Shown piece by piece: positions 9,201-19,275 of a DNA stretch of 64,000 nt (position 1 is the first letter of the stretch; the number at the start of each line of letters is the position of its first letter). The notes under the pieces were generated by a model. It searched no databases. It was not told the origin of the DNA and saw only the letters and a program-made list of their open reading frames with translations. The position numbers and the translations under genes are program-made. Source of the stretch: Thermoproteota archaeon (GTDB lineage: Archaea; Korarchaeota; JAOZGF01; JAOZFZ01); contig JAOZFT010000004.1 of assembly GCA_027492035.1 (NCBI GenBank), forward strand, positions 1 through 64,000, given 5' to 3'.

Positions 9201-11924
9201 TTATTTTAAGGTTTTAACAGCTACAATGTACCCTTTTTCAATTTTTACATTACAGGGCTGCTGTGAAAGCAGAGTAAATATTTCTTCGTCGGATAACTCT
9301 TTTGTAGTTGCAAACACTGTCTGGTTGGCTGGTAAGAGATGAATCACCCAAATAGTTTCTCCCCCCTTTACCCAGTTAAGGAGTACCTTTATTTTTTGCA
9401 CATTTACCCATTGTTCCTTTTCAATTTGCTTCTTTACCCCATAAAGTTTGTTGAATGCTTCAATAACGCTTTGGGCACCAGGTAACTGTGAAATTTCCAC
9501 TTTCTGTGCTTCAGCATCCAAAACAACAGTAGCTACATGTCTCTCAACATTCTGAACCTCTTTGTACATAGGGACCACGTAGAAAGTTTTGTTTTTCAGC
9601 CTCATAAAGAACACATTGCCGTGTCTTAATCCGCTGCCAAGCAAAGTCATCGCTTCAGCTACTTTTTCGTTACTCTCAAGCAAGTGAAGGGCTTTCACAG
9701 GCCCAACTGTATTGCTTTTCCCTATTATACCAACTCTGTAAAAAGTTATTCTTCCGAAATTTTTCCCGTGGAAAACCACGTACACACCAGCTAAGTAATG
9801 CCCTTTCAGTTCAGCCATTTGGATCCCGACAAATCTGAAAGAGTTATTTACAGGAAACATAATGTAGTAGACACCAGACCACCAAACTTCTTCACCCTTC
9901 CTTGTATCAACTGGGAAAGTGAACACATCTGTCCTTCCCTTCCAAGTGTCAAAGTCAGAAATGTGATAAAGGAAATCTGTAGCTAACTGTTTTTCAAGTA
10001 AAGGCTCTGGATACCGCCATTGTTCAATAAGCCATTGAGGAGGAGTTTGCCAGGGGTAATAGCTTCTGTAAAAGCCGTAAATTGGTTTTAAATATTTGTT
10101 CACAGTTATTTCCGGAGGTAAATAAAACTCCATGTGCCCATCATAAGAATCTACCAGAATAACTCCCAGTAATTGGAGGTAGGGTGACTGGGAGTAAGGG
10201 ATTGGCAGGTTTAGATCTATCCAAACATGTACGGCGAAATACATTTTTCCATTGTGAAAAACAGGGTATGCATCCCTGCTTTCCTCAGGCCCCACTGTTA
10301 AACCAGGCAGCAGTATATTTTCTACTCTTTCAAATGAGTTACGCAGTGTTAACAACCCGACACTTTCCTCCTGTATGAAACCGAAATGTGGAAAAAGTTT
10401 AGCGAATTTAACAAAGCCTGTAAGTCGAACATCAGGTTCCGAATTGAAGCTCCAGTTGGAAGTAGTGATTTCTTTGTATTTTGTTGTAAGGTAAACTTCA
10501 GGAATATCTCTTCCTTCACTGTAGTATATCGGGATTATACTTGAAACTCCAAGCAGTTTTTTCACTTCAGAGGGAGGAATTATTTCCCCAGTGGTTGGGT
10601 CAAGAATTATTAATCCTTCAGCGTGAGTGTAGAGTACATGTTTTTTCAACCAGTCGCCTCCTATGTAGTCTTCGTTAAGTCTCATTGGAATTATCCAGTA
10701 TTCGCTGCCTGTTTTATTAACGAAAACTATGTCACTATCAGAAGGCCTCATCCAAGATGCACCCACCAAAGGTAGAGTGCGCCGGAAAGAGGCCATATAA
10801 TCCCATATTCTTGTCTTATTTAAAACATAAGTTGAGCTTAGGTTTGTCTTTAATTGCCCCAAGTTTTCCCGATGTATAGTGTCAATCCCGGCTAAGGTTT
10901 TGGTTATATGAATTGCTTTCACGGTTTTAGTGCCCCATACCCATTCCTTTTCATAAATAGATTCCCTAATTTTGTAGTTGGTAAACCATACTCCGCCAAA
11001 AACAATGATTAAAACCAGTAACGCCAAAAAATATTTTTTAACGCATCCTTTAAAGAAATCCTTACCCAGTTTTTTTAAGTCACCATAAACTGTCAAGAGT
11101 GTTAACCCGGTCAGCCACAGCCCAGTGGCTAACAGAAAATAAAGTTTAAGAGTCGACCAAACAACGTTTTCCCACCTGGGAATAGTTAAAAAGTAATCTA
11201 TGTAAAGTATGTCAAGAATTAAAACTGCTGACAAACTCTTTTTGTAAAAATCGCGTCTGTAACTGGTTTCAGCGGTATAAAAGAGTAACCTAGCTATAAG
11301 AGAAACTGAAAATATTAATGCTACGTACCACCAGAAACTGTGGGAAACAAGGATGTTTAAGTTAGAAAGAATTTCTTCCGATGAAGTGTAAGGGTTTAAA
11401 CACCATTTTATTCCAAGCCCCACTCCTTCAAAAAGAGCAACTGGTGATTTTAGAGATAACAAGTAATTTATCAGGAAGGGGGTTGTAGCAAAAAAGAAAG
11501 AGAAGGTGATAAAGAATTGAAAAGCCCTCCAAAGGAAGGTAGCTTTCTTACTTACTTTTACTTCCTCTATCTCCTTATAGGTTTTCGAAGCCAATGCTTC
11601 CAACAAATCTGGTGGCAGAGACTTATACTTTCTTTTCTTCTCTAACCTAGCAAGTCTTTTTGAAGCTAAAAAGTTAAGGAAGGATAGAAGCAGAGACTTT
11701 GCCGGGCTTACCAACAGTGAAGGCAAAATAAACGCTAAACTTAAAATAAGGGCTAGGGATAATCTTCCTCCCCTGTAAAGGAAGAAATCTGTAATGTATT
11801 CAACCCCTGCCTTTTTACTATAAAGCTCCTGATAAATGCTTAGATCAACTAGCCATGAAGTAATCGGCATCCACAATATAAAGACAGCAACTATAAACAA
11901 AACAAGAAGTTTTTTCTTATCCAT
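9201..11924 (-). CDS. UPF0182 family membrane protein
   Basis: Multi-TM N-terminus; RIWD, W..KHVLYTH, DAYPV, VDSYDG, WRYPE.L..Q...YH and GNV motifs. Confidence 0.88.
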   Translation of the reverse strand: MDKKKLLVLFIVAVFILWMPITSWLVDLSIYQELYSKKAGVEYITDFFLYRGGRLSLALILSLAFILPSLLVSPAKSLLLSFLNFLASKRLARLEKKRKYKSLPPDLLEALASKTYKEIEEVKVSKKATFLWRAFQFFITFSFFFATTPFLINYLLSLKSPVALFEGVGLGIKWCLNPYTSSEEILSNLNILVSHSFWWYVALIFSVSLIARLLFYTAETSYRRDFYKKSLSAVLILDILYIDYFLTIPRWENVVWSTLKLYFLLATGLWLTGLTLLTVYGDLKKLGKDFFKGCVKKYFLALLVLIIVFGGVWFTNYKIRESIYEKEWVWGTKTVKAIHITKTLAGIDTIHRENLGQLKTNLSSTYVLNKTRIWDYMASFRRTLPLVGASWMRPSDSDIVFVNKTGSEYWIIPMRLNEDYIGGDWLKKHVLYTHAEGLIILDPTTGEIIPPSEVKKLLGVSSIIPIYYSEGRDIPEVYLTTKYKEITTSNWSFNSEPDVRLTGFVKFAKLFPHFGFIQEESVGLLTLRNSFERVENILLPGLTVGPEESRDAYPVFHNGKMYFAVHVWIDLNLPIPYSQSPYLQLLGVILVDSYDGHMEFYLPPEITVNKYLKPIYGFYRSYYPWQTPPQWLIEQWRYPEPLLEKQLATDFLYHISDFDTWKGRTDVFTFPVDTRKGEEVWWSGVYYIMFPVNNSFRFVGIQMAELKGHYLAGVYVVFHGKNFGRITFYRVGIIGKSNTVGPVKALHLLESNEKVAEAMTLLGSGLRHGNVFFMRLKNKTFYVVPMYKEVQNVERHVATVVLDAEAQKVEISQLPGAQSVIEAFNKLYGVKKQIEKEQWVNVQKIKVLLNWVKGGETIWVIHLLPANQTVFATTKELSDEEIFTLLSQQPCNVKIEKGYIVAVKTLK

Positions 11925-13017: not shown

Positions 13018-13560
13018 ATGGTTAAAGTAGGGTTTAAGGGTAAGGTTGTCGAATACAAAACTTGCTTTTCCTCTTTGAAACAATTGAAATTATGTAGTTC
13101 ATTTTTTAAGTCTGTTGACAAAAAAGAGAAAGAGAAGCTTTCCTGGCTTCTTTCTAAAAGCTTAGTTTTAGCTTGTTTAAGTGAAATTTACCTTTACCCA
13201 CACTCTAAAATAAAAGTTGATGACTCCTCTATCCTAAAGGGGGAGAGTAAGTCTCCAGATGTAACTTTTTACCTAGGCCAGGAAGTTGTGGAGGGAGAGG
13301 TTAAAAGCAGCTCCTTCACCCTCCCAAACCCTTCCACTTACCAAGAAGAATTACTGAAAGGGTATTGTTTCGAGAAAAATGTTGTATTTATAGGTTTGTT
13401 TATAGAGAGGAATTCCTTAACAGCTAGGGTTGGAAAGTTAGTTTTGCTGGAGAACAATCAAAGACCTAACTTCTTTATTGAAAGAAGGAAACTGAGAAAC
13501 ATGGAAAGTCTAGGTTTTTTGGGGGGTGAATTCCTGTGGAGGAAAAGATTAAACCGTTAA
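13018..13560 (+). CDS. Putative PD-(D/E)XK nuclease
   Basis: SPDVTFYLGQEVVEGEVK matches the PD-x(n)-ExK pattern after a helical segment. Confidence 0.55.
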   Translation: MVKVGFKGKVVEYKTCFSSLKQLKLCSSFFKSVDKKEKEKLSWLLSKSLVLACLSEIYLYPHSKIKVDDSSILKGESKSPDVTFYLGQEVVEGEVKSSSFTLPNPSTYQEELLKGYCFEKNVVFIGLFIERNSLTARVGKLVLLENNQRPNFFIERRKLRNMESLGFLGGEFLWRKRLNR

Positions 13561-14627
13561 AGAAACTGAAGGAGTTAAAGAAGAGGTTCCACCACCCTAA
13601 AAAAATTTTTTCGTCCCCAGCTTTCCCTAATTTCTCGGTTGAGAAAAAAGATGGTGATTTTAAGTTCGGCTTCATTTACAACCCTAAAAACAAAACATTC
13701 CACGGCAACTATTTCTTAAAGAAACCATTTTCACTGTTTAACTTAACAGATGACACACAGAAACTTAACTCTTTCAATTTTTATCTTTTCAAACTTCTTA
13801 AGAATGAACCCTTCTTGGTTTTGGATTTTGACGGCTTAGTTTCTGCTTATTGCTCCACAAAGAGAGTGGAAGGTGTTTCAGTAACGGATTGGTCACACAT
13901 AAAATATATTTCCCTTAAAATAAATAGAGAAGAATTTGTTTTTACTTTAAACAGTTTGCTTTCAACCTTTTCAGGTTTCACACCTCTTCACAAAGACATC
14001 CTCTACCATGTCTTAAACATTTACTTTGAGGGAGAAAATTTTGTTCCGTTTAGAGATGTTTTAAGCGGGTTGGAGTCTTATCCTTCAGGTTCCGTAACTG
14101 ATTTAAAGGTGTTAAGCAGTATGAAACATTTAATCAGTATATTGGCATTGAAAGAGGAAAAGGAGGATTTAAAAGAGCTCTCATCCCTGCCAGAAAAGAC
14201 AGTAGTGGATTTGTCGAGTTTAAAGTTTTCACGACTCAAAATGTTCCTTTACCCTTTCATTCTCTCAAACGTATTCCATGGAGAAGATACCGGGAAAACT
14301 TTTCTTCTTACCCGCTGCAACCCCCTAAATTACTCATTAGAAAACTATTTGTCGCTAAATGACTTTGTTGAGGAGTTGCAGAAGAGAAGAAATAATTTAA
14401 TAATTAATTTTGATTTAATCCATCTTTTTGACCCTAAATTCCTTGGTTTAGCGAAAAATATAGGTTTTTTAAACCACAACATTTTTTTAAACAGAAGTTT
14501 CCTTTCTTTAGAGAGGGAGCTTGACATGAATCTACCCATATTTTTAAATTACTTGGATCAAGAAGGCATGGTGTTATTTGAAAGAGAGAGAAACCAATTA
14601 TTCCTTTTAATGCACCCCTTCTTCTAA
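13536..14627 (+). CDS. HerA/VirB4 (DUF87)-like ATPase-fold protein with degenerate catalytic motifs
   Basis: PFLVLDFDG, KTVVDLSSL and overall motif spacing resemble the DUF87/HerA core; no recognisable Walker A or B; overlaps the upstream ORF by 25 nt. Confidence 0.5.
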   Translation: MEEKIKPLKKLKELKKRFHHPKKIFSSPAFPNFSVEKKDGDFKFGFIYNPKNKTFHGNYFLKKPFSLFNLTDDTQKLNSFNFYLFKLLKNEPFLVLDFDGLVSAYCSTKRVEGVSVTDWSHIKYISLKINREEFVFTLNSLLSTFSGFTPLHKDILYHVLNIYFEGENFVPFRDVLSGLESYPSGSVTDLKVLSSMKHLISILALKEEKEDLKELSSLPEKTVVDLSSLKFSRLKMFLYPFILSNVFHGEDTGKTFLLTRCNPLNYSLENYLSLNDFVEELQKRRNNLIINFDLIHLFDPKFLGLAKNIGFLNHNIFLNRSFLSLERELDMNLPIFLNYLDQEGMVLFERERNQLFLLMHPFF

Positions 14628-14629
14628 AG

Positions 14630-14905
14630 GTGTTAACAAAAATGAGTAAGGAAAAAGAAAATAATTCTGGAATGAGTTTACCGGCTCCTGCTAAAAAATT
14701 AGATTTGAGAGGGTTAGTTTGTCCAATGCCTGACTTAAGGATAGAATTAGCTATGCAAAAACTTGAAGAGGGAGAAGTTTTAGTTGTTTACGCAGATAAA
14801 CCATTATCCCTTACTTCACTTAAGTCAAGTATGGAGGATAAAGGCTACATTTTTTTGACGCAAGTAGACAGAAACAAATTCTTTGAAATCTACATCCGAA
14901 AATGA
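14630..14905 (+). CDS. tusA: TusA/SirA sulfur carrier
   Basis: LDLRGLVCPMP motif. Confidence 0.9.
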   Translation: MLTKMSKEKENNSGMSLPAPAKKLDLRGLVCPMPDLRIELAMQKLEEGEVLVVYADKPLSLTSLKSSMEDKGYIFLTQVDRNKFFEIYIRK

Positions 14906-15442: not shown

Positions 15443-17794
15443 TTAAGAAATCGAAGTTTGTGGGAAAAGTTTTTGGGCTTGGTTATTACTTTCATTAAGT
15501 TCAGAGATCAAATTGAGGGGGTCAACAATTACGGTTACGTTGTGTTGGCCGAGAGGTAATTGCTCCTCAATTTTTAAAGTGTAGAAGTATTTTTCCATGG
15601 AAGGTAGGGGTACAGGACAAATGTTTGTGGCTAAAACTTCCCCATCAAAAAGAACTTGGAAATATATGGGAGGCTCAGCTTCCCCCTCCCCTGAGTTAAC
15701 TATTTCAAATTGTACATTGTGTAAGGTTAAATTTTCAAATACTTCGCTTAAGGCATAGTTTACTCTTAAATGTTCCACCACCAAGTCTGGAAGCTTCATC
15801 TTTTCCGCTTCAAAGTAAACTGAATCTTGATTATTTGTTTCGTTGCTTTCTGCAACTGAATTATTTGGGTCAACTGCGACTTCAATTTTGTAACGTCCAG
15901 GTGCTTCTAAACTGAAATTGAAATTTGTAATTATTTCTTCCCCGGGATCTAGATCTGGAAGTTTCAGTTCTTGTTCATTCACCAATTCCTCTTCCCAATA
16001 CAGTTTAAATTTAACAGTGGTTGGTGGAGAGGAGGTGTTGCCCTCATTTTTTATTTTAACAGTTGCTTTAGTGGAGATCGGCGCCTGAACCTTAGGTGGA
16101 GGGGCCTCTATTTTTTCAATTTTCAGGTCAGGTTTATTTTTAGGTTTAACTGGAGAGACTGTCTTGCTTGAAATCAGGTATCCATAGTTTGTATGGTTTT
16201 TTCCAGTCACATGGATAAGTATTTCCTTTATTTCGTTAGGTTTCTCCGCCACAATTTTTAATTTGAAGTTTAAAACTTTACCCACTGGTAAAGCTTCTTT
16301 TCCATAAAGCCTTAACCCTCCCGGGATTCTTTCACTACCCCACCCTGGGATCGGTTCAATAACTCCTGCACTTTTCCATTTAGGTTTTTGTTCATTAAAG
16401 AAGATTTCAAGATCATACACTTTGTTACTGTAGGGAAGAAGCGGTATAACCTTGAAAAACTCGACGCTAACAGTTATCACATCATCTTTAACTGAAAAAT
16501 TTGATTCACAAGCTGTCAATATTTGTTTCTGCGGAGTTGGAGATGTAGGGGAAGGTTTTACAGTAGGAGGGAGTGGAGGGGGAGGAGTGAATGTTTCAGT
16601 AGGTGAGGGAGTAGGGGGTGGTGGAGAAATCCTTGATGAGGAAATTTCTGGGTTTAAATCTTTTCCTTCAAGCCCGTTTAAAACAATTCTTTTAGCTTTG
16701 CTCCAGTTCCCTCTCCAAACAGAGTAGTAAATTTCTCCTCCTTTCTCAGTACTCCACCACACAGTTAATGCTTTGCCACTTTGAAGAAAGACTACAGCAG
16801 GCCTATAATCTGTTGTCCCTGAGTTGGCTGCAAAACCTGATTTAAAGTTTCCACATTCATAAGAAGACCAAACGTCCCCATTATTTTCAGTATTTACATA
16901 GGTAACTATTGCGCAGTCACGGGAGTCGCAGTCAGTTTCAGGCATCTGCATGTAACCTATGGTTTGAGGCTTAGTCCATGAAACACCGTTCCAAATAGAA
17001 AACATTACTTCTCCGTTTTCAGTTGACCAAACAGCTTTTACACTTCCGTGTTCCGAAATGCCACATCTAAAAACAGTGTAGGTATGAAAGTCACTCACTG
17101 CATTTCTGGTTTGGAGGGGGATGGGTTGAGGCTGACACCATTTATTTCCATTAAACCTAGAATAGAAAATTTTTGTTATGTTAGAGGAAGTAGAGTCTGA
17201 CCAAATTGCTATTGCCGACGGCTTTTCTTCATTTTCGTAGGTGATTTCAGGGAGAGAGGCTGTGTAAAGGGTGTAGTTTGGAGTTAACGATTTTGCCTGG
17301 CTCCATTTACCAATTAGTTTATTATATGTTGAGTAATACATTAATCTTTTACCATTTTCCACATGCACCCAAACACAAACAGCTTCCCCTTTAGAATTAT
17401 AAGCAACATCCGGGTCGATATCTAAACCCGGAATTTGACATAAAGGTTTTGCAGGTGTCCAAGTGAAATTATTTAGACTCCATATTGAGTAATATATGTC
17501 ACCGGTTTCCTGGTTTGACCACACAGCAATTGCGGAGTCATGCGGCCCAAACTCTATGTTGGGGTCGTAGTCATTACCCTTAAGAGTAGAGATAGGTGAA
17601 GCTGTGCCGTTTAGAGTCCACCACTGCTCCCTTGCATCATCCCAAATAGAGTACCAAATATCCCAGTCTTGTTTAGTGTAATGTTGCCAGACAGCAATAG
17701 CATCAACTTCCCCTTTCGGCGGGGAAGGCTGACCTAAACAACCAAAAAGAAAAGTTAAAACAATTAAGCCAATAAGAAAAGGGGGTTTCTTCAT
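15443..17794 (-). CDS. Cell-surface lipoprotein: beta-propeller, Pro-rich linker and two CARDB domains
   Basis: FLFGC lipobox-like signal; about 7 repeats of IxYSxW; PPPPTPSPT linker; two PDL...VDP.N.(V/I).E.NE.NN CARDB signatures. Confidence 0.85.
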   Translation of the reverse strand: MKKPPFLIGLIVLTFLFGCLGQPSPPKGEVDAIAVWQHYTKQDWDIWYSIWDDAREQWWTLNGTASPISTLKGNDYDPNIEFGPHDSAIAVWSNQETGDIYYSIWSLNNFTWTPAKPLCQIPGLDIDPDVAYNSKGEAVCVWVHVENGKRLMYYSTYNKLIGKWSQAKSLTPNYTLYTASLPEITYENEEKPSAIAIWSDSTSSNITKIFYSRFNGNKWCQPQPIPLQTRNAVSDFHTYTVFRCGISEHGSVKAVWSTENGEVMFSIWNGVSWTKPQTIGYMQMPETDCDSRDCAIVTYVNTENNGDVWSSYECGNFKSGFAANSGTTDYRPAVVFLQSGKALTVWWSTEKGGEIYYSVWRGNWSKAKRIVLNGLEGKDLNPEISSSRISPPPPTPSPTETFTPPPPLPPTVKPSPTSPTPQKQILTACESNFSVKDDVITVSVEFFKVIPLLPYSNKVYDLEIFFNEQKPKWKSAGVIEPIPGWGSERIPGGLRLYGKEALPVGKVLNFKLKIVAEKPNEIKEILIHVTGKNHTNYGYLISSKTVSPVKPKNKPDLKIEKIEAPPPKVQAPISTKATVKIKNEGNTSSPPTTVKFKLYWEEELVNEQELKLPDLDPGEEIITNFNFSLEAPGRYKIEVAVDPNNSVAESNETNNQDSVYFEAEKMKLPDLVVEHLRVNYALSEVFENLTLHNVQFEIVNSGEGEAEPPIYFQVLFDGEVLATNICPVPLPSMEKYFYTLKIEEQLPLGQHNVTVIVDPLNLISELNESNNQAQKLFPQTSIS

Positions 17795-17980: not shown

Positions 17981-18517
17981 TTGAGGGAAGAGGTTATACC
18001 CCTCTACGCTCAGGCAGTGATAAGTTTAAACTTTGATGGAGAAATAAAAGAAGTGTTGATTTTTGACTACTTAGACCCTGAACTTTATTATTTTAACCTT
18101 AAGAGGGACAAAACTAAGTTTGAAAAGGAGAAAATGAGCTTATGGAAAAGAATGCAGGGTTTCATAGATAAAGAAACTGCGTTCCTTAACGGTGAAGAAG
18201 TTTTTTCAGTAATTGAACAAGTAGAAATAGGTTTTAGGGGAAGGAAGGAAACCCCCTTCATTTTATTCCTTATTTCAACACTTGCCCCTTTAAAGGAGGG
18301 TGAAAATATCTACGAAGTTTTCTATGAAAATGAAACGCTTGACTACGACGTTTTTTCCATCTGGTTCTTTCCCCTCAGAACCGAAATAACTGAAGTAATT
18401 TCGAACCTTAAACACTTCACTGAAAAGAATTTTTTAATTTTCCATGGAAGGAAAGGGACAGAGCTTGAAGGATACGAGAAAATCTGTTTTAACATAAAAA
18501 AGGAGGGATTTTGTTGA
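17981..18517 (+). CDS. Conserved hypothetical archaeal protein
   Basis: 178-aa ORF overlapping the nucS start by 7 nt. Confidence 0.7.
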   Translation: MREEVIPLYAQAVISLNFDGEIKEVLIFDYLDPELYYFNLKRDKTKFEKEKMSLWKRMQGFIDKETAFLNGEEVFSVIEQVEIGFRGRKETPFILFLISTLAPLKEGENIYEVFYENETLDYDVFSIWFFPLRTEITEVISNLKHFTEKNFLIFHGRKGTELEGYEKICFNIKKEGFC

Positions 18518-19275
18518 AGTTAAGAATTAACCCTTCACTAGAGGAAACTGAGGAATTTCTTAATGAAAACATCGCCAAAAAGAGATTCATTATCTTGCTA
18601 GGTTCCTGTAAAGTTGACTACATTGGCCGTGCAAAGTCTACGTTAACACAAGGAGAAAGAGTGATACTTATTAAAAGGGATGGGTCAGTTCTTATTCATA
18701 AAGGGACAGGTTACCAACCTGTTAATTGGCAGCCTCCACCATGCACTGTTTCAGCGAAAAGAGAAGGGGATTCTTTGAAAGTGACAGCTTTAAGAATAAA
18801 ACCTTTAGAGAAACTGGAAATTCATTTTTCCAAAATAAACCTGGTTCTTGCATTTCACTTACAAGATGAAGGAGTTTTTGACTTGCTGCTTCAGGAGGAA
18901 GTAATGAAGAAAGCTGTGTTAACAAAACCAGAAATTTTGGAACAAGGTTTTAAACCGTTAGAAACAGAAAAGAGAATTAATTCAGGGTTTATTGACTTGT
19001 ACGGTTTAGATAGGGAAGGAAAACCTGTAATTGTGGAGTTTAAAAGGAGAAAAGCTGAAAAAGAGGATGTAGACCAGCTTTTGACTTACGTGGCAGAGAT
19101 GGAATCTAAAGGGAAAAGAAAAATTAGAGGCGTGTTAGTTGCTCCTTCAATTTCAAAACCTGCTTACGCTTTAGTCCAGAAGAATAATTTGGAGTTTAAG
19201 AAGTTAACCCCTAAAGAATGTCAGGAAATGATGAAACATAAAACAATTAAGATAACTGAGTTCTTTAAAGAATGA
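18511..19275 (+). CDS. nucS: Endonuclease NucS/EndoMS
   Basis: YIGRAKSTL..G.R...IK.DGSVLIH, PVNWQPP, GFIDLYG...IVEFKR and QL..Y. Confidence 0.95.
   Translation: MLKLRINPSLEETEEFLNENIAKKRFIILLGSCKVDYIGRAKSTLTQGERVILIKRDGSVLIHKGTGYQPVNWQPPPCTVSAKREGDSLKVTALRIKPLEKLEIHFSKINLVLAFHLQDEGVFDLLLQEEVMKKAVLTKPEILEQGFKPLETEKRINSGFIDLYGLDREGKPVIVEFKRRKAEKEDVDQLLTYVAEMESKGKRKIRGVLVAPSISKPAYALVQKNNLEFKKLTPKECQEMMKHKTIKITEFFKE

Follow-up and report, generated by a model that had tools for sequence, protein, structure and literature searches.

A candidate nuclease and a predicted HerA/VirB4-fold protein without ATPase motifs, encoded by paired genes of a small archaeal order

We have analyzed a 64,000-nucleotide stretch of archaeal DNA (called the window here: positions 1 to 64,000 of the forward strand of contig JAOZFT010000004.1, GenBank assembly GCA_027492035.1, from a Thermoproteota archaeon of GTDB lineage Archaea, Korarchaeota, JAOZGF01, JAOZFZ01) and, within it, two overlapping open reading frames (ORFs) at positions 13018 to 14627. 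Comparison with related genomes indicates that these two, ORF1 and ORF2, make up a translationally coupled, vertically inherited two-gene module that is limited to one small archaeal order. ORF1 is a candidate nuclease of the PD-(D/E)XK type, and ORF2 is a predicted pseudo-ATPase, with the fold of the VirB4 C-terminal domain (CTD), the DndH C-domain, TrwB and HerA and without their ATPase motifs. A sequence-only reading of the window had proposed such a pair, with ORF2 retained as a scaffold or sensor for the nuclease. That interpretation is on the whole supported by the analysis below; the scaffold or sensor role is a step that we infer.

Results

ORF1 occupies positions 13018..13560 of the plus strand (180 amino acids (aa), ATG start), and ORF2 occupies positions 13536..14627 of the same strand (363 aa, GTG start), with an overlap of 25 nucleotides (nt; 13536-13560); both frames and their overlap are as first described. 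A Shine-Dalgarno-like GGGGGGTGA (13521-13529) is followed, after a 6-nt spacer, by the ORF2 GTG, and this whole element (13521..13538, plus strand) lies inside the 3′ end of ORF1, an arrangement by which ORF2 is evidently translationally coupled to ORF1. We compared 43 genomes of the phylum, among them G000 (the genome of the window), G001 (same family) and G002 (same order). A six-frame search of 41 related genomes found full-length, stop-free homologs of ORF2 in G001 (E 1.4e-65, 34% identity) and G002 (E 3.7e-46, 32% identity), with ORF1 homologs directly upstream of them in both. Because of these stop-free homologs and the ORF1 homologs just ahead of them, ORF1 and ORF2 are evidently genuine genes and not chance ORFs.

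The expectation that the pair would be conserved in relatives was borne out, as the two genes stand side by side in all three genomes that carry them. Their junction varies, with an overlap of 37 nt in G001 and a gap of 7 nt in G002, and the N-terminal MEEK of ORF2 is common to G000 and G001. The orthologs share 31-37% amino acid identity, with synonymous sites saturated; across this order-level divergence, lengths are kept (180-184 aa for ORF1, 356-363 aa for ORF2), both frames are uninterrupted, and many non-motif columns are invariant. Invariant surface columns of ORF2 include P64-F65, D97, E180-S181-Y182 and D330-N332-L333-P334. The pair appears to evolve somewhat faster than the genes around it yet remains intact: between G000 and G001, identity is 34% for ORF1 and 35% for ORF2, compared with 44% for a neighboring TusA protein, 47% for a 178-aa ORF and 52% for NucS.

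The family is very small. In profile searches, ORF1 and ORF2 were each found in 3 of the 43 phylum genomes, the same three in both cases and none of the other 40, and these three are every genome of the order in the set. A word search of 5.8 billion proteins returned only the query itself for ORF2 and only the three orthologs for ORF1. An exhaustive hmmsearch with the ORF2 profile, covering 1.84 billion cluster representatives, added to the three orthologs a single remote relative, P0007 (476 aa, from a 3.3-kb contig; E 4.7e-4, aligned to profile positions 40-354), which has no relatives of its own in the protein database, genome contigs or metagenome contigs searched. A genome-contig scan with the ORF1 profile gave no loci beyond two known ortholog loci. 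Pfam and NCBIfam at E<=1 hold no family for either protein, apart from a meaningless 11-bit NCBIfam match of ORF1, and a Protein Data Bank (PDB) sequence search gave no match (best E 1.3 and 1.8). Among nine proteins tested, which included the three ortholog pairs and P0007, there were no matches to PADLOC-DB v2 families at E<=1 or to PHROGs at E<0.1.

Three further candidates for ORF2 relatives were rejected. First, positions 1873-2565 of a metagenome contig of 3038 bases (L047) proved a false positive that shares a single word, GDFTIGFIY, with ORF2; these positions hold a 230-aa ORF, which we take by eye to be LamG-like, on a phage-like contig beside another ORF that we take to be 2OG-Fe(II)-oxygenase-like. 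Second, another ORF2-profile match in the genome of the window (contig C10, E 6e-4) was set down to chance; the ORF under it presumably encodes a glycerophosphodiester phosphodiesterase. Third, a match in another genome (G025, E 0.009) contains an internal stop and was likewise rejected as chance.

The best AlphaFold2 (AF2) model of ORF2, built from a four-row alignment, has a mean predicted local distance difference test score (pLDDT) of 82.2 and a predicted template-modeling score (pTM) of 0.82; the other four models reach pLDDT values of 58-64. At E<=1e-3, Foldseek matched this model to 125 PDB chains, with VirB4 (4ag5_B, E 9.9e-8, TM score 0.61) at their head and the DndH C-domain (7es4) also among the leading matches. 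In pairwise VIA alignments, the strongest were to the DndH C-domain (7es4; Z 22.1, 311 of 363 residues aligned, root-mean-square deviation (rmsd) 3.6) and to the VirB4 CTD (4ag5_A; Z 21.7, 312 aa, with model residues 34-363 on chain residues 205-582), followed by TrwB (Z 19.6), HerA (Z 18.1 and 17.5), STIV2 B204 (Z 13.6) and EssC (Z 12.6); matches with Z values of 22.1 to 17.5 extend over ~300-312 residues. The ten best ESM Atlas feature matches are all to AAA_10, DUF87, TrwB_AAD_bind or AAA_22 proteins (score 0.95, 186 of 256 features shared). A helical insertion lies at about residues 131-206, where TrwB-type proteins have their all-alpha domain. The models thus show, with the confidence just given, the full VirB4-CTD/DndH-C/TrwB/HerA fold.

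The earlier description of ORF2 as HerA-like consequently holds for the fold of the clade and not for HerA proper. The model contains no HAS-barrel, having only ~40 ordered residues ahead of the core, and HerA chains align to it only from about residue 120-150 on; ORF2 is nearer to the VirB4 CTD, the DndH C-domain and TrwB than to HerA itself. A DUF87 hidden Markov model (HMM) search of G000 hit six places, ORF2 not among them, and ORF2 has no DUF87, AAA_10 or TrwB_AAD_bind match in Pfam at E<=1.

All of the strings that the sequence-only reading had quoted from ORF2 are present: GDFKFGF (residues 40-46), LFNLTDDTQKL (67-77), PFLVLDFDG (92-100), KTVVDLSSL (221-229), FLLTRCN (256-262) and EELQKRRNNLII (279-290). 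Their assignment to ATPase motif positions agrees with the secondary structure of the AF2 model and with the register of profile alignments, which are not significant but are concordant. As a reference we used a profile (A4) of six genuine DUF87 ATPases of G000-G002, in all six of which the Walker A G-K, the Walker B E-A and the sensor Gln are invariant. Aligned to it by hhalign, the ORF2 family gave a probability of 1.9-2.3%, which is not significant, yet in the register that the fold dictates: FNLTDDT- falls opposite GSTGSGKS, with two one-residue deletions in ORF2; FLVLDFDG falls opposite VLVLDWSG; T259-R260 falls opposite the Walker B D-E; D293 falls opposite the sensor Gln; and Q282-K283-R284 falls opposite the Arg-finger segment.

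At the degenerate P-loop position (residues 66-77, SLFNLTDDTQKL; 13731..13766, plus strand), the model places a strand at 66-70, a loop of three residues at 71-73 and a helix at 74-88. Across the four known family members, i.e. the three orthologs and P0007, the column reads TDDTQK, SPDKTK, ADREQP and AGSRGY, with no GK[ST] in any of them. The Walker B position (residues 255-261, TFLLTRC; 14298..14318, plus strand) is a strand over the same residues in the model, and in the hhalign register T259-R260 replace D-E. The equivalent segments of the other three members are IIVSRT, IVLKDL and LAVSDA, so that the pair of residues reads TR, SR, KD and SD and never completes an hhhhDE. On the sensor-1 strand (residues 287-293, NLIINFD; 14394..14414, plus strand), D293 replaces the Gln of the clade, the column being D, D, N and E in the four members; the Arg-finger position just upstream (Q282-K283-R284) is unconserved, with KRR, KERS, KNDN and GKGY. 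According to the main text of PMC10853773, the HerA/FtsK clade is defined by two features, a sensor-1 Gln where core strand 4 ends and an Arg finger shortly before it. By model and alignment, then, the earlier claim that ORF2 has lost all of its catalytic motifs holds in four of four members, none of which has a Walker A (its loop is shorter by two residues), a Walker B, the sensor Gln or a conserved Arg finger. Because these elements are lost, ORF2 is predicted to be unable to bind or hydrolyze ATP in the canonical way.

ORF1 comprises an Hjc-like core at about residues 35-130 and is extended beyond it at both termini. Its putative catalytic motif, S79-P-D81 ... E94-V-K96-S-S (13252..13311, plus strand), contains the residues reported at first reading (S79-P80-D81 and E92-G93-E94-V95-K96); D81 is at the start of strand 2 and E94 and K96 are in strand 3 of the model, and all three are invariant in the three orthologs. 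The AF2 model has a pLDDT of 85.1 and a pTM of 0.83, with two of the five models above 84, and runs in the order helix 35-58, strands 66-68, 82-86 and 89-98, helix 105-115 and strand 122-129.

Foldseek gave no PDB match for ORF1 at E<=1e-3; the weak top matches are all to PD-(D/E)XK proteins (HincII, Hjc, RecU, VRR-NUC). In a VIA search over representative structures, Hjc (1gef_A) came first, with a Z of 6.2 over 97 aa and an rmsd of 3.2, in a range (Z <8) where matches can be common and which is below the clearly non-random level. The next rows were lambda-exonuclease-type proteins (5.6 and 5.2), MspI (5.1), I-Ssp6803I (4.9) and tRNA-splicing endonucleases. An hhalign comparison with six Hjc proteins of the phylum was not significant (probability 2.1%), its sole local alignment placing SPDV..EGEVKSS on PSSD..IEVKTTS; the spacing from Asp to Glu, 13 residues, is that of the phylum's Hjc. 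No match of ORF1 to NurA was found among the Pfam families. ORF1 therefore has the D...E-x-K motif on inspection of its alignment, and a PD-(D/E)XK fold, the restriction endonuclease (REase) fold that had been predicted, is consistent with the modeled core and its mostly PD-(D/E)XK neighbors and is not proven by structural scores that are only modest.

A possible membrane connection emerged from P0007. Its N terminus carries a CxxC...CxxC Zn ribbon, which gave a weak match to Pfam Zn_Ribbon_TF, and hydrophobic segments reaching to about residue 125, ahead of its ORF2-like domain. Immediately before the ORF1 homolog of G002, and overlapping it by 4 nt, is a gene for a Zn-ribbon protein of 139 aa that also has hydrophobic segments; the order there is Zn-ribbon/transmembrane (TM) protein, ORF1, ORF2. 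Four Cys are invariant in the family of this protein, 3-4 TM segments are predicted, and hhalign relates the family to P0007 across the Zn ribbon and first TM segment (probability 84%, E 7e-6). A link between the pair and the membrane is thus probable on two supports, fusion in one lineage (P0007) and adjacency in another (G002). The Zn-ribbon protein occurs in 3 of the 43 phylum genomes, the same three as the pair. We discounted this co-occurrence as evidence of linkage; the shared pattern says only that a gene is specific to the order, because the unrelated 178-aa ORF shows it too. G001 also has a second Zn-ribbon/TM copy (contig C55:2837-3237) that is pseudogenized, with at least four in-frame TAA/TGA stops; ORF1 and ORF2 profiles detected no copy of either gene beside it.

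Every genome with the pair also has an Hjc of its own. Hjc (PF01870) is found in 40 of the 43 phylum genomes, G000-G002 included, and the idea that ORF1 replaces a missing Hjc gene was accordingly rejected. The Hjc proteins of the order are short, at 95-102 aa, and share 56-57% identity among the three; their genes lie at C38:111114-111419 in G000 (L048:415-720, minus strand; 101 aa), L049:253-540 in G001 (minus strand) and L050:235-543 in G002 (plus strand). That ORF1 is a recent duplicate of this short Hjc was also rejected (hhalign probability 0.4%). We tabulated the four catalytic columns in the best Hjc match of each of the 40 genomes. The tetrad is E-D-E-K in 34 genomes and E-D-Q-K in 3 (families f4 and f5), and it reads E-D-T-K in G000, E-D-S-R in G001, with the Lys changed to Arg as well, and E-D-A-K in G002. 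The Glu of E-x-K is essential in Hjc. Among the 40 genomes, the only Hjc proteins with neither a carboxylate nor an amide at that position are those of the three genomes that carry the pair.

The pair lies among genes of an ordinary chromosomal kind, and the surrounding 32 kb encode DUF2070, ArsR, radical SAM, AsnB-like, UPF0182 membrane, TusA, CARDB surface and NucS proteins and, further, diphthamide synthase, sugar-nucleotide enzymes, AcnX, thioredoxin and ScpB. No integrase, tRNA or defense genes were found in these 32 kb, no type IV secretion system (T4SS), Ced or Dnd-like genes were found among the neighbors of the pair, and there is no active HerA/VirB4 gene near it at any of the three loci. 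In G001, the genes for ORF1, ORF2, TusA, the 178-aa ORF and NucS follow one another in the same direction, no more than 40 nt apart; in G000, a CARDB gene on the minus strand separates TusA from the 178-aa ORF; and in G002, other genes flank the pair, with NucS and the 178-aa ORF on other short contigs.

Of the individual neighbors, the TusA-family sulfur carrier (14630-14905, plus strand) starts 3 nt past the ORF2 stop and lies downstream of the pair in G001 as well, though not in G002; it is probably co-transcribed with the pair, with no obvious functional link. The CARDB protein (15443-17794, minus strand; 783 aa) is secreted or surface-bound, with a Pro/Thr-rich linker and two CARDB domains. 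The 178-aa ORF (17981-18517, plus strand) matches nothing in Pfam, PADLOC or PHROGs and extends 7 nt into the start of NucS (18511-19275 of the window). In G001, too, it immediately precedes NucS (47% identity), and among the 43 phylum genomes it is confined to the three that carry the pair, G002 having two copies; judged by this arrangement, it may be an order-specific partner of NucS. On the other side of the pair, a 907-aa multi-pass membrane protein (9201-11924, minus strand) has a weak, above-threshold UPF0182 match (35.9 bits) in its C-terminal half.

Elsewhere in G000, three of the six DUF87-type matches adjoin NurA-like genes, the HerA-type loci being at C21:101383-103114, C12:20888-23707 and C31:63833-66740. 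Because G000 has these three NurA-like/DUF87 neighbor pairs, ORF1 and ORF2 are additional to the classical NurA-HerA. Three NurA-HerA-type pairs are unusually many for a genome of 1.87 Mb.

Discussion

The reading that we tentatively prefer is that ORF2 serves as a non-catalytic platform for ORF1, with the processing of chromosomal DNA as its favored setting. ORF2 would be a probably oligomeric protein that binds DNA or partners, and its part would be to recruit, position or gate ORF1. It would do for this nuclease, minus the motor, what HerA does for NurA or what, within DndH, the HerA/FtsK domain does for the REase domain. The platform would probably be held at the membrane by the Zn-ribbon protein with its 3-4 TM segments, and ORF1 would cleave junctions or branched or bridging chromosomal DNA. 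Chromosomal processing seems likelier than defense against mobile elements because the pair is inherited vertically, because its context is one of housekeeping genes and NucS, and because the E-x-K Glu of the order's Hjc has been lost.

Several observations weigh against this view. First, the models were built on three to four sequences, and only one of five for ORF2 and two of five for ORF1 are confident. The profile matches to DUF87 and Hjc are not significant, the best Z of ORF1 is modest, and unrelated Sfp-type phosphopantetheinyl transferases reach a Z of 5.2. Second, binding between ORF1 and ORF2 and the oligomerization of ORF2 are both matters that we infer. A complex prediction for the two scored 0.00 against a mark of 0.32; it was run without controls and counts for neither side. 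Third, the Zn-ribbon orthologs of G000 (contig C10) and G001 (contig C181), i.e. those of two of the three genomes, are unlinked to the pair, and the 3/43 pattern is also that of the unrelated 178-aa ORF. Fourth, the NucS neighborhood is seen in one family only (two of three genomes), and the G002 assembly is fragmented. Fifth, the three pair-bearing genomes are close kin, and because of this the correlation with the altered Hjc counts as effectively a single evolutionary event. The lost Glu might be made good by another, which is invariant at position 48 of the short Hjc, and the Gln at the same site in families f4 and f5 occurs without the pair. Finally, the divergence of the pair, at 34-35% identity, exceeds that of its neighbors, at 44-52%, and would also fit a conflict system.

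A bolder form of the platform reading joins these elements into one device. The pair would be a motor-less, membrane-anchored FtsK/VirB4-type ring with an Hjc-like nuclease that, in this lineage, has replaced a canonical Hjc devoid of its E-x-K Glu in the resolution of junctions or DNA bridges, and it would act on chromosomal DNA at the membrane or the division site. The Zn-ribbon TM protein would serve as its anchor in trans, while P0007 would carry the anchor in cis. We consider this quite unlikely in its entirety. If true, it would be a previously unknown, ATP-independent device for chromosome resolution in archaea.

The strongest competitor, which we think possible and yet rather unlikely, is an anti-invader conflict system, in which a REase-fold effector would be paired with an inert HerA/FtsK/VirB4-type sensor or decoy. 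Its targets could be the DNA-pumping machinery of invaders (conjugative VirB4/TraG or viral packaging ATPases) or DNA entering at the membrane, and the pair would then be a split, motor-less analogue of the REase and HerA/FtsK module of DndH, or of DUF4297-HerA or Sir2-HerA. The structural comparisons lend themselves to this, in that the best match of ORF2 is the DndH C-domain (Z 22.1) and the defense HerA complexes all match it. So do the narrow distribution of the pair and its faster divergence, and a membrane anchor would suit surveillance of incoming DNA. The order REase to HerA/FtsK in DndH and the idea of "HerA/FtsK capture," both set out in the main text of PMC10853773, point the same way. 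Nevertheless, none of the nine proteins tested matched PADLOC or PHROGs, no defense genes, integrase or tRNA lie in the 32 kb examined, and the pair is single-copy, syntenic and vertically inherited across the order, while the known nuclease-HerA defense systems have active ATPases. The flavor of antiviral defense in the sequence-only reading thus found no backing, either in PADLOC or in the housekeeping surroundings of the pair.

Two other explanations are improbable to a similar degree. In one, ORF2 would be a regulatory or poison subunit of an active HerA/VirB4-type ATPase of the host, and ORF1 a separate, co-regulated nuclease. Potential targets exist in the six DUF87-type matches of G000, three of them by NurA-like genes, and degenerate FtsK-type domains regulate active ones in EccC/EssC, as described in the main text of bioRxiv 10.1101/2024.01.26.577026. 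However, no active HerA/VirB4 gene accompanies the pair at any of its three loci, the similarity of ORF2 to its local paralogs is not significant, which makes mixed rings unlikely, and the conserved partner of ORF2 is ORF1, to which it appears translationally coupled. In the other explanation, the pair would be what is left of an old integrated element, conjugative or viral, that had a VirB4/TraG-type ATPase and a nuclease; now domesticated or in decay, it would have no specific function or would resemble a toxin-antitoxin pair. The top ESM Atlas cluster of ORF2 is indeed viral AAA_10, 11 viral FtsK/HerA/A32-type matches are found at E<=1e-3, and the ATPase motifs are gone. Decay is difficult to reconcile, though, with two uninterrupted ORFs whose lengths are conserved across the order, with many invariant non-motif columns and with the invariant catalytic triad of ORF1, and no hallmarks of an element lie nearby. 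Least probable is that ORF2 acts as a ligand-gated switch for ORF1 through a non-canonical nucleotide or ligand site, since, although D97 (the strand-2 Asp of hhhD..G) and several pocket-adjacent columns are invariant in all four members, the P-loop is two residues short and unconserved, and its Lys and Ser/Thr, the Walker B acid pair and the sensor Gln are all missing.

The non-catalytic platform for ORF1 thus stays our preferred account, and it offers two concrete leads, membrane tethering, from the Zn-ribbon/TM fusion, and resolvase replacement, from the degenerate active site of Hjc. The family is tiny and uncultured, with three genomes assembled from metagenomes and one singleton, and its immediate reach is limited.

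How does the pair compare with known systems? Partnerships of nucleases with HerA/FtsK proteins function in end resection (NurA-HerA), restriction (DndH) and anti-phage defense (Sir2-HerA, DUF4297-HerA), and in all of these, to our knowledge, the ring protein is an ATP-driven motor. NurA-HerA resembles the pair in joining a nuclease gene to the gene of a HerA-clade ring protein, and HerA chains match ORF2 with Z values of 16-18; it differs in that ORF1 is of the PD-(D/E)XK type rather than NurA, and in that ORF2 has neither a HAS-barrel nor ATPase motifs. DUF4297-HerA and Sir2-HerA (Nezha) likewise combine an effector with a HerA-type platform (Z 14-16 to ORF2), and DUF4297 is itself a PD-(D/E)XK-type nuclease. 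Their HerA proteins, though, are active and carry N-terminal barrels, whereas our pair has no PADLOC match and a housekeeping context.

The likeness in fold is nearly full-length with the VirB4 CTD of T. pseudethanolicus (4ag5/4ag6) and with TrwB/VirD4 (1e9s, 1gki), and it includes the helical insertion between strand 2 and the next core strand. TrwB/VirD4 has an N-terminal TM anchor, as does P0007. Identity to these proteins is only 6-12%, and ORF2 lacks the ATPase motifs, the N-terminal domain of VirB4 and any nearby T4SS or Ced genes. For ORF1, Hjc (PF01870) is the best structural neighbor and has the same 13-residue spacing from Asp to Glu. In contrast to Hjc, which is about 120-145 aa long, ORF1 has ~35 extra N-terminal and ~45 extra C-terminal residues and no match to the Hjc HMM, and each genome with the pair has a separate Hjc-family gene without detectable similarity to it.

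Erosion of Walker motifs on a HerA/FtsK-clade fold has a precedent in the DUF, D2 and D3 domains of EccC/EssC of type VII secretion. The DUF domain of EccC5 is ATP-blind, with a Walker A one residue short and an extended helix 1 in the crystal structure, and is thought to keep a structural role or one in the hexamer (main text of bioRxiv 10.1101/2024.01.26.577026). In EccC/EssC, however, the degenerate domains stand in cis with an active ATPase within one membrane protein and the substrates are proteins, whereas ORF2 stands alone and has a nuclease partner. DndH, by the main text of PMC10853773, has a REase-fold part followed by a HerA/FtsK-fold part, the same order as ORF1 and ORF2; it is a protein of ~1700 aa and eight domains whose HerA/FtsK ATPase is active, and DndF and DndG are its partners. 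The pair, unlike DndFGH, consists of two small proteins, with motifs lost and with TusA, membrane proteins and NucS as neighbors. Full-text searches on this theme brought up no stand-alone Walker-less HerA/VirB4-fold protein with a nuclease partner, and degenerate domains only in cis with active ones (EccC/EssC); the supplement of PMC10853773 could list related inactive HerA/FtsK forms. What appears to be new here is the combination of a predicted stand-alone, motif-less VirB4/DndH-C-type protein with an intact small candidate nuclease as partner and a separable Zn-ribbon membrane anchor. If the platform reading is correct, the pair would show that a ring of this clade can be used purely for architecture or recognition, where NurA-HerA, DndH, Sir2-HerA and DUF4297-HerA use it as a motor.

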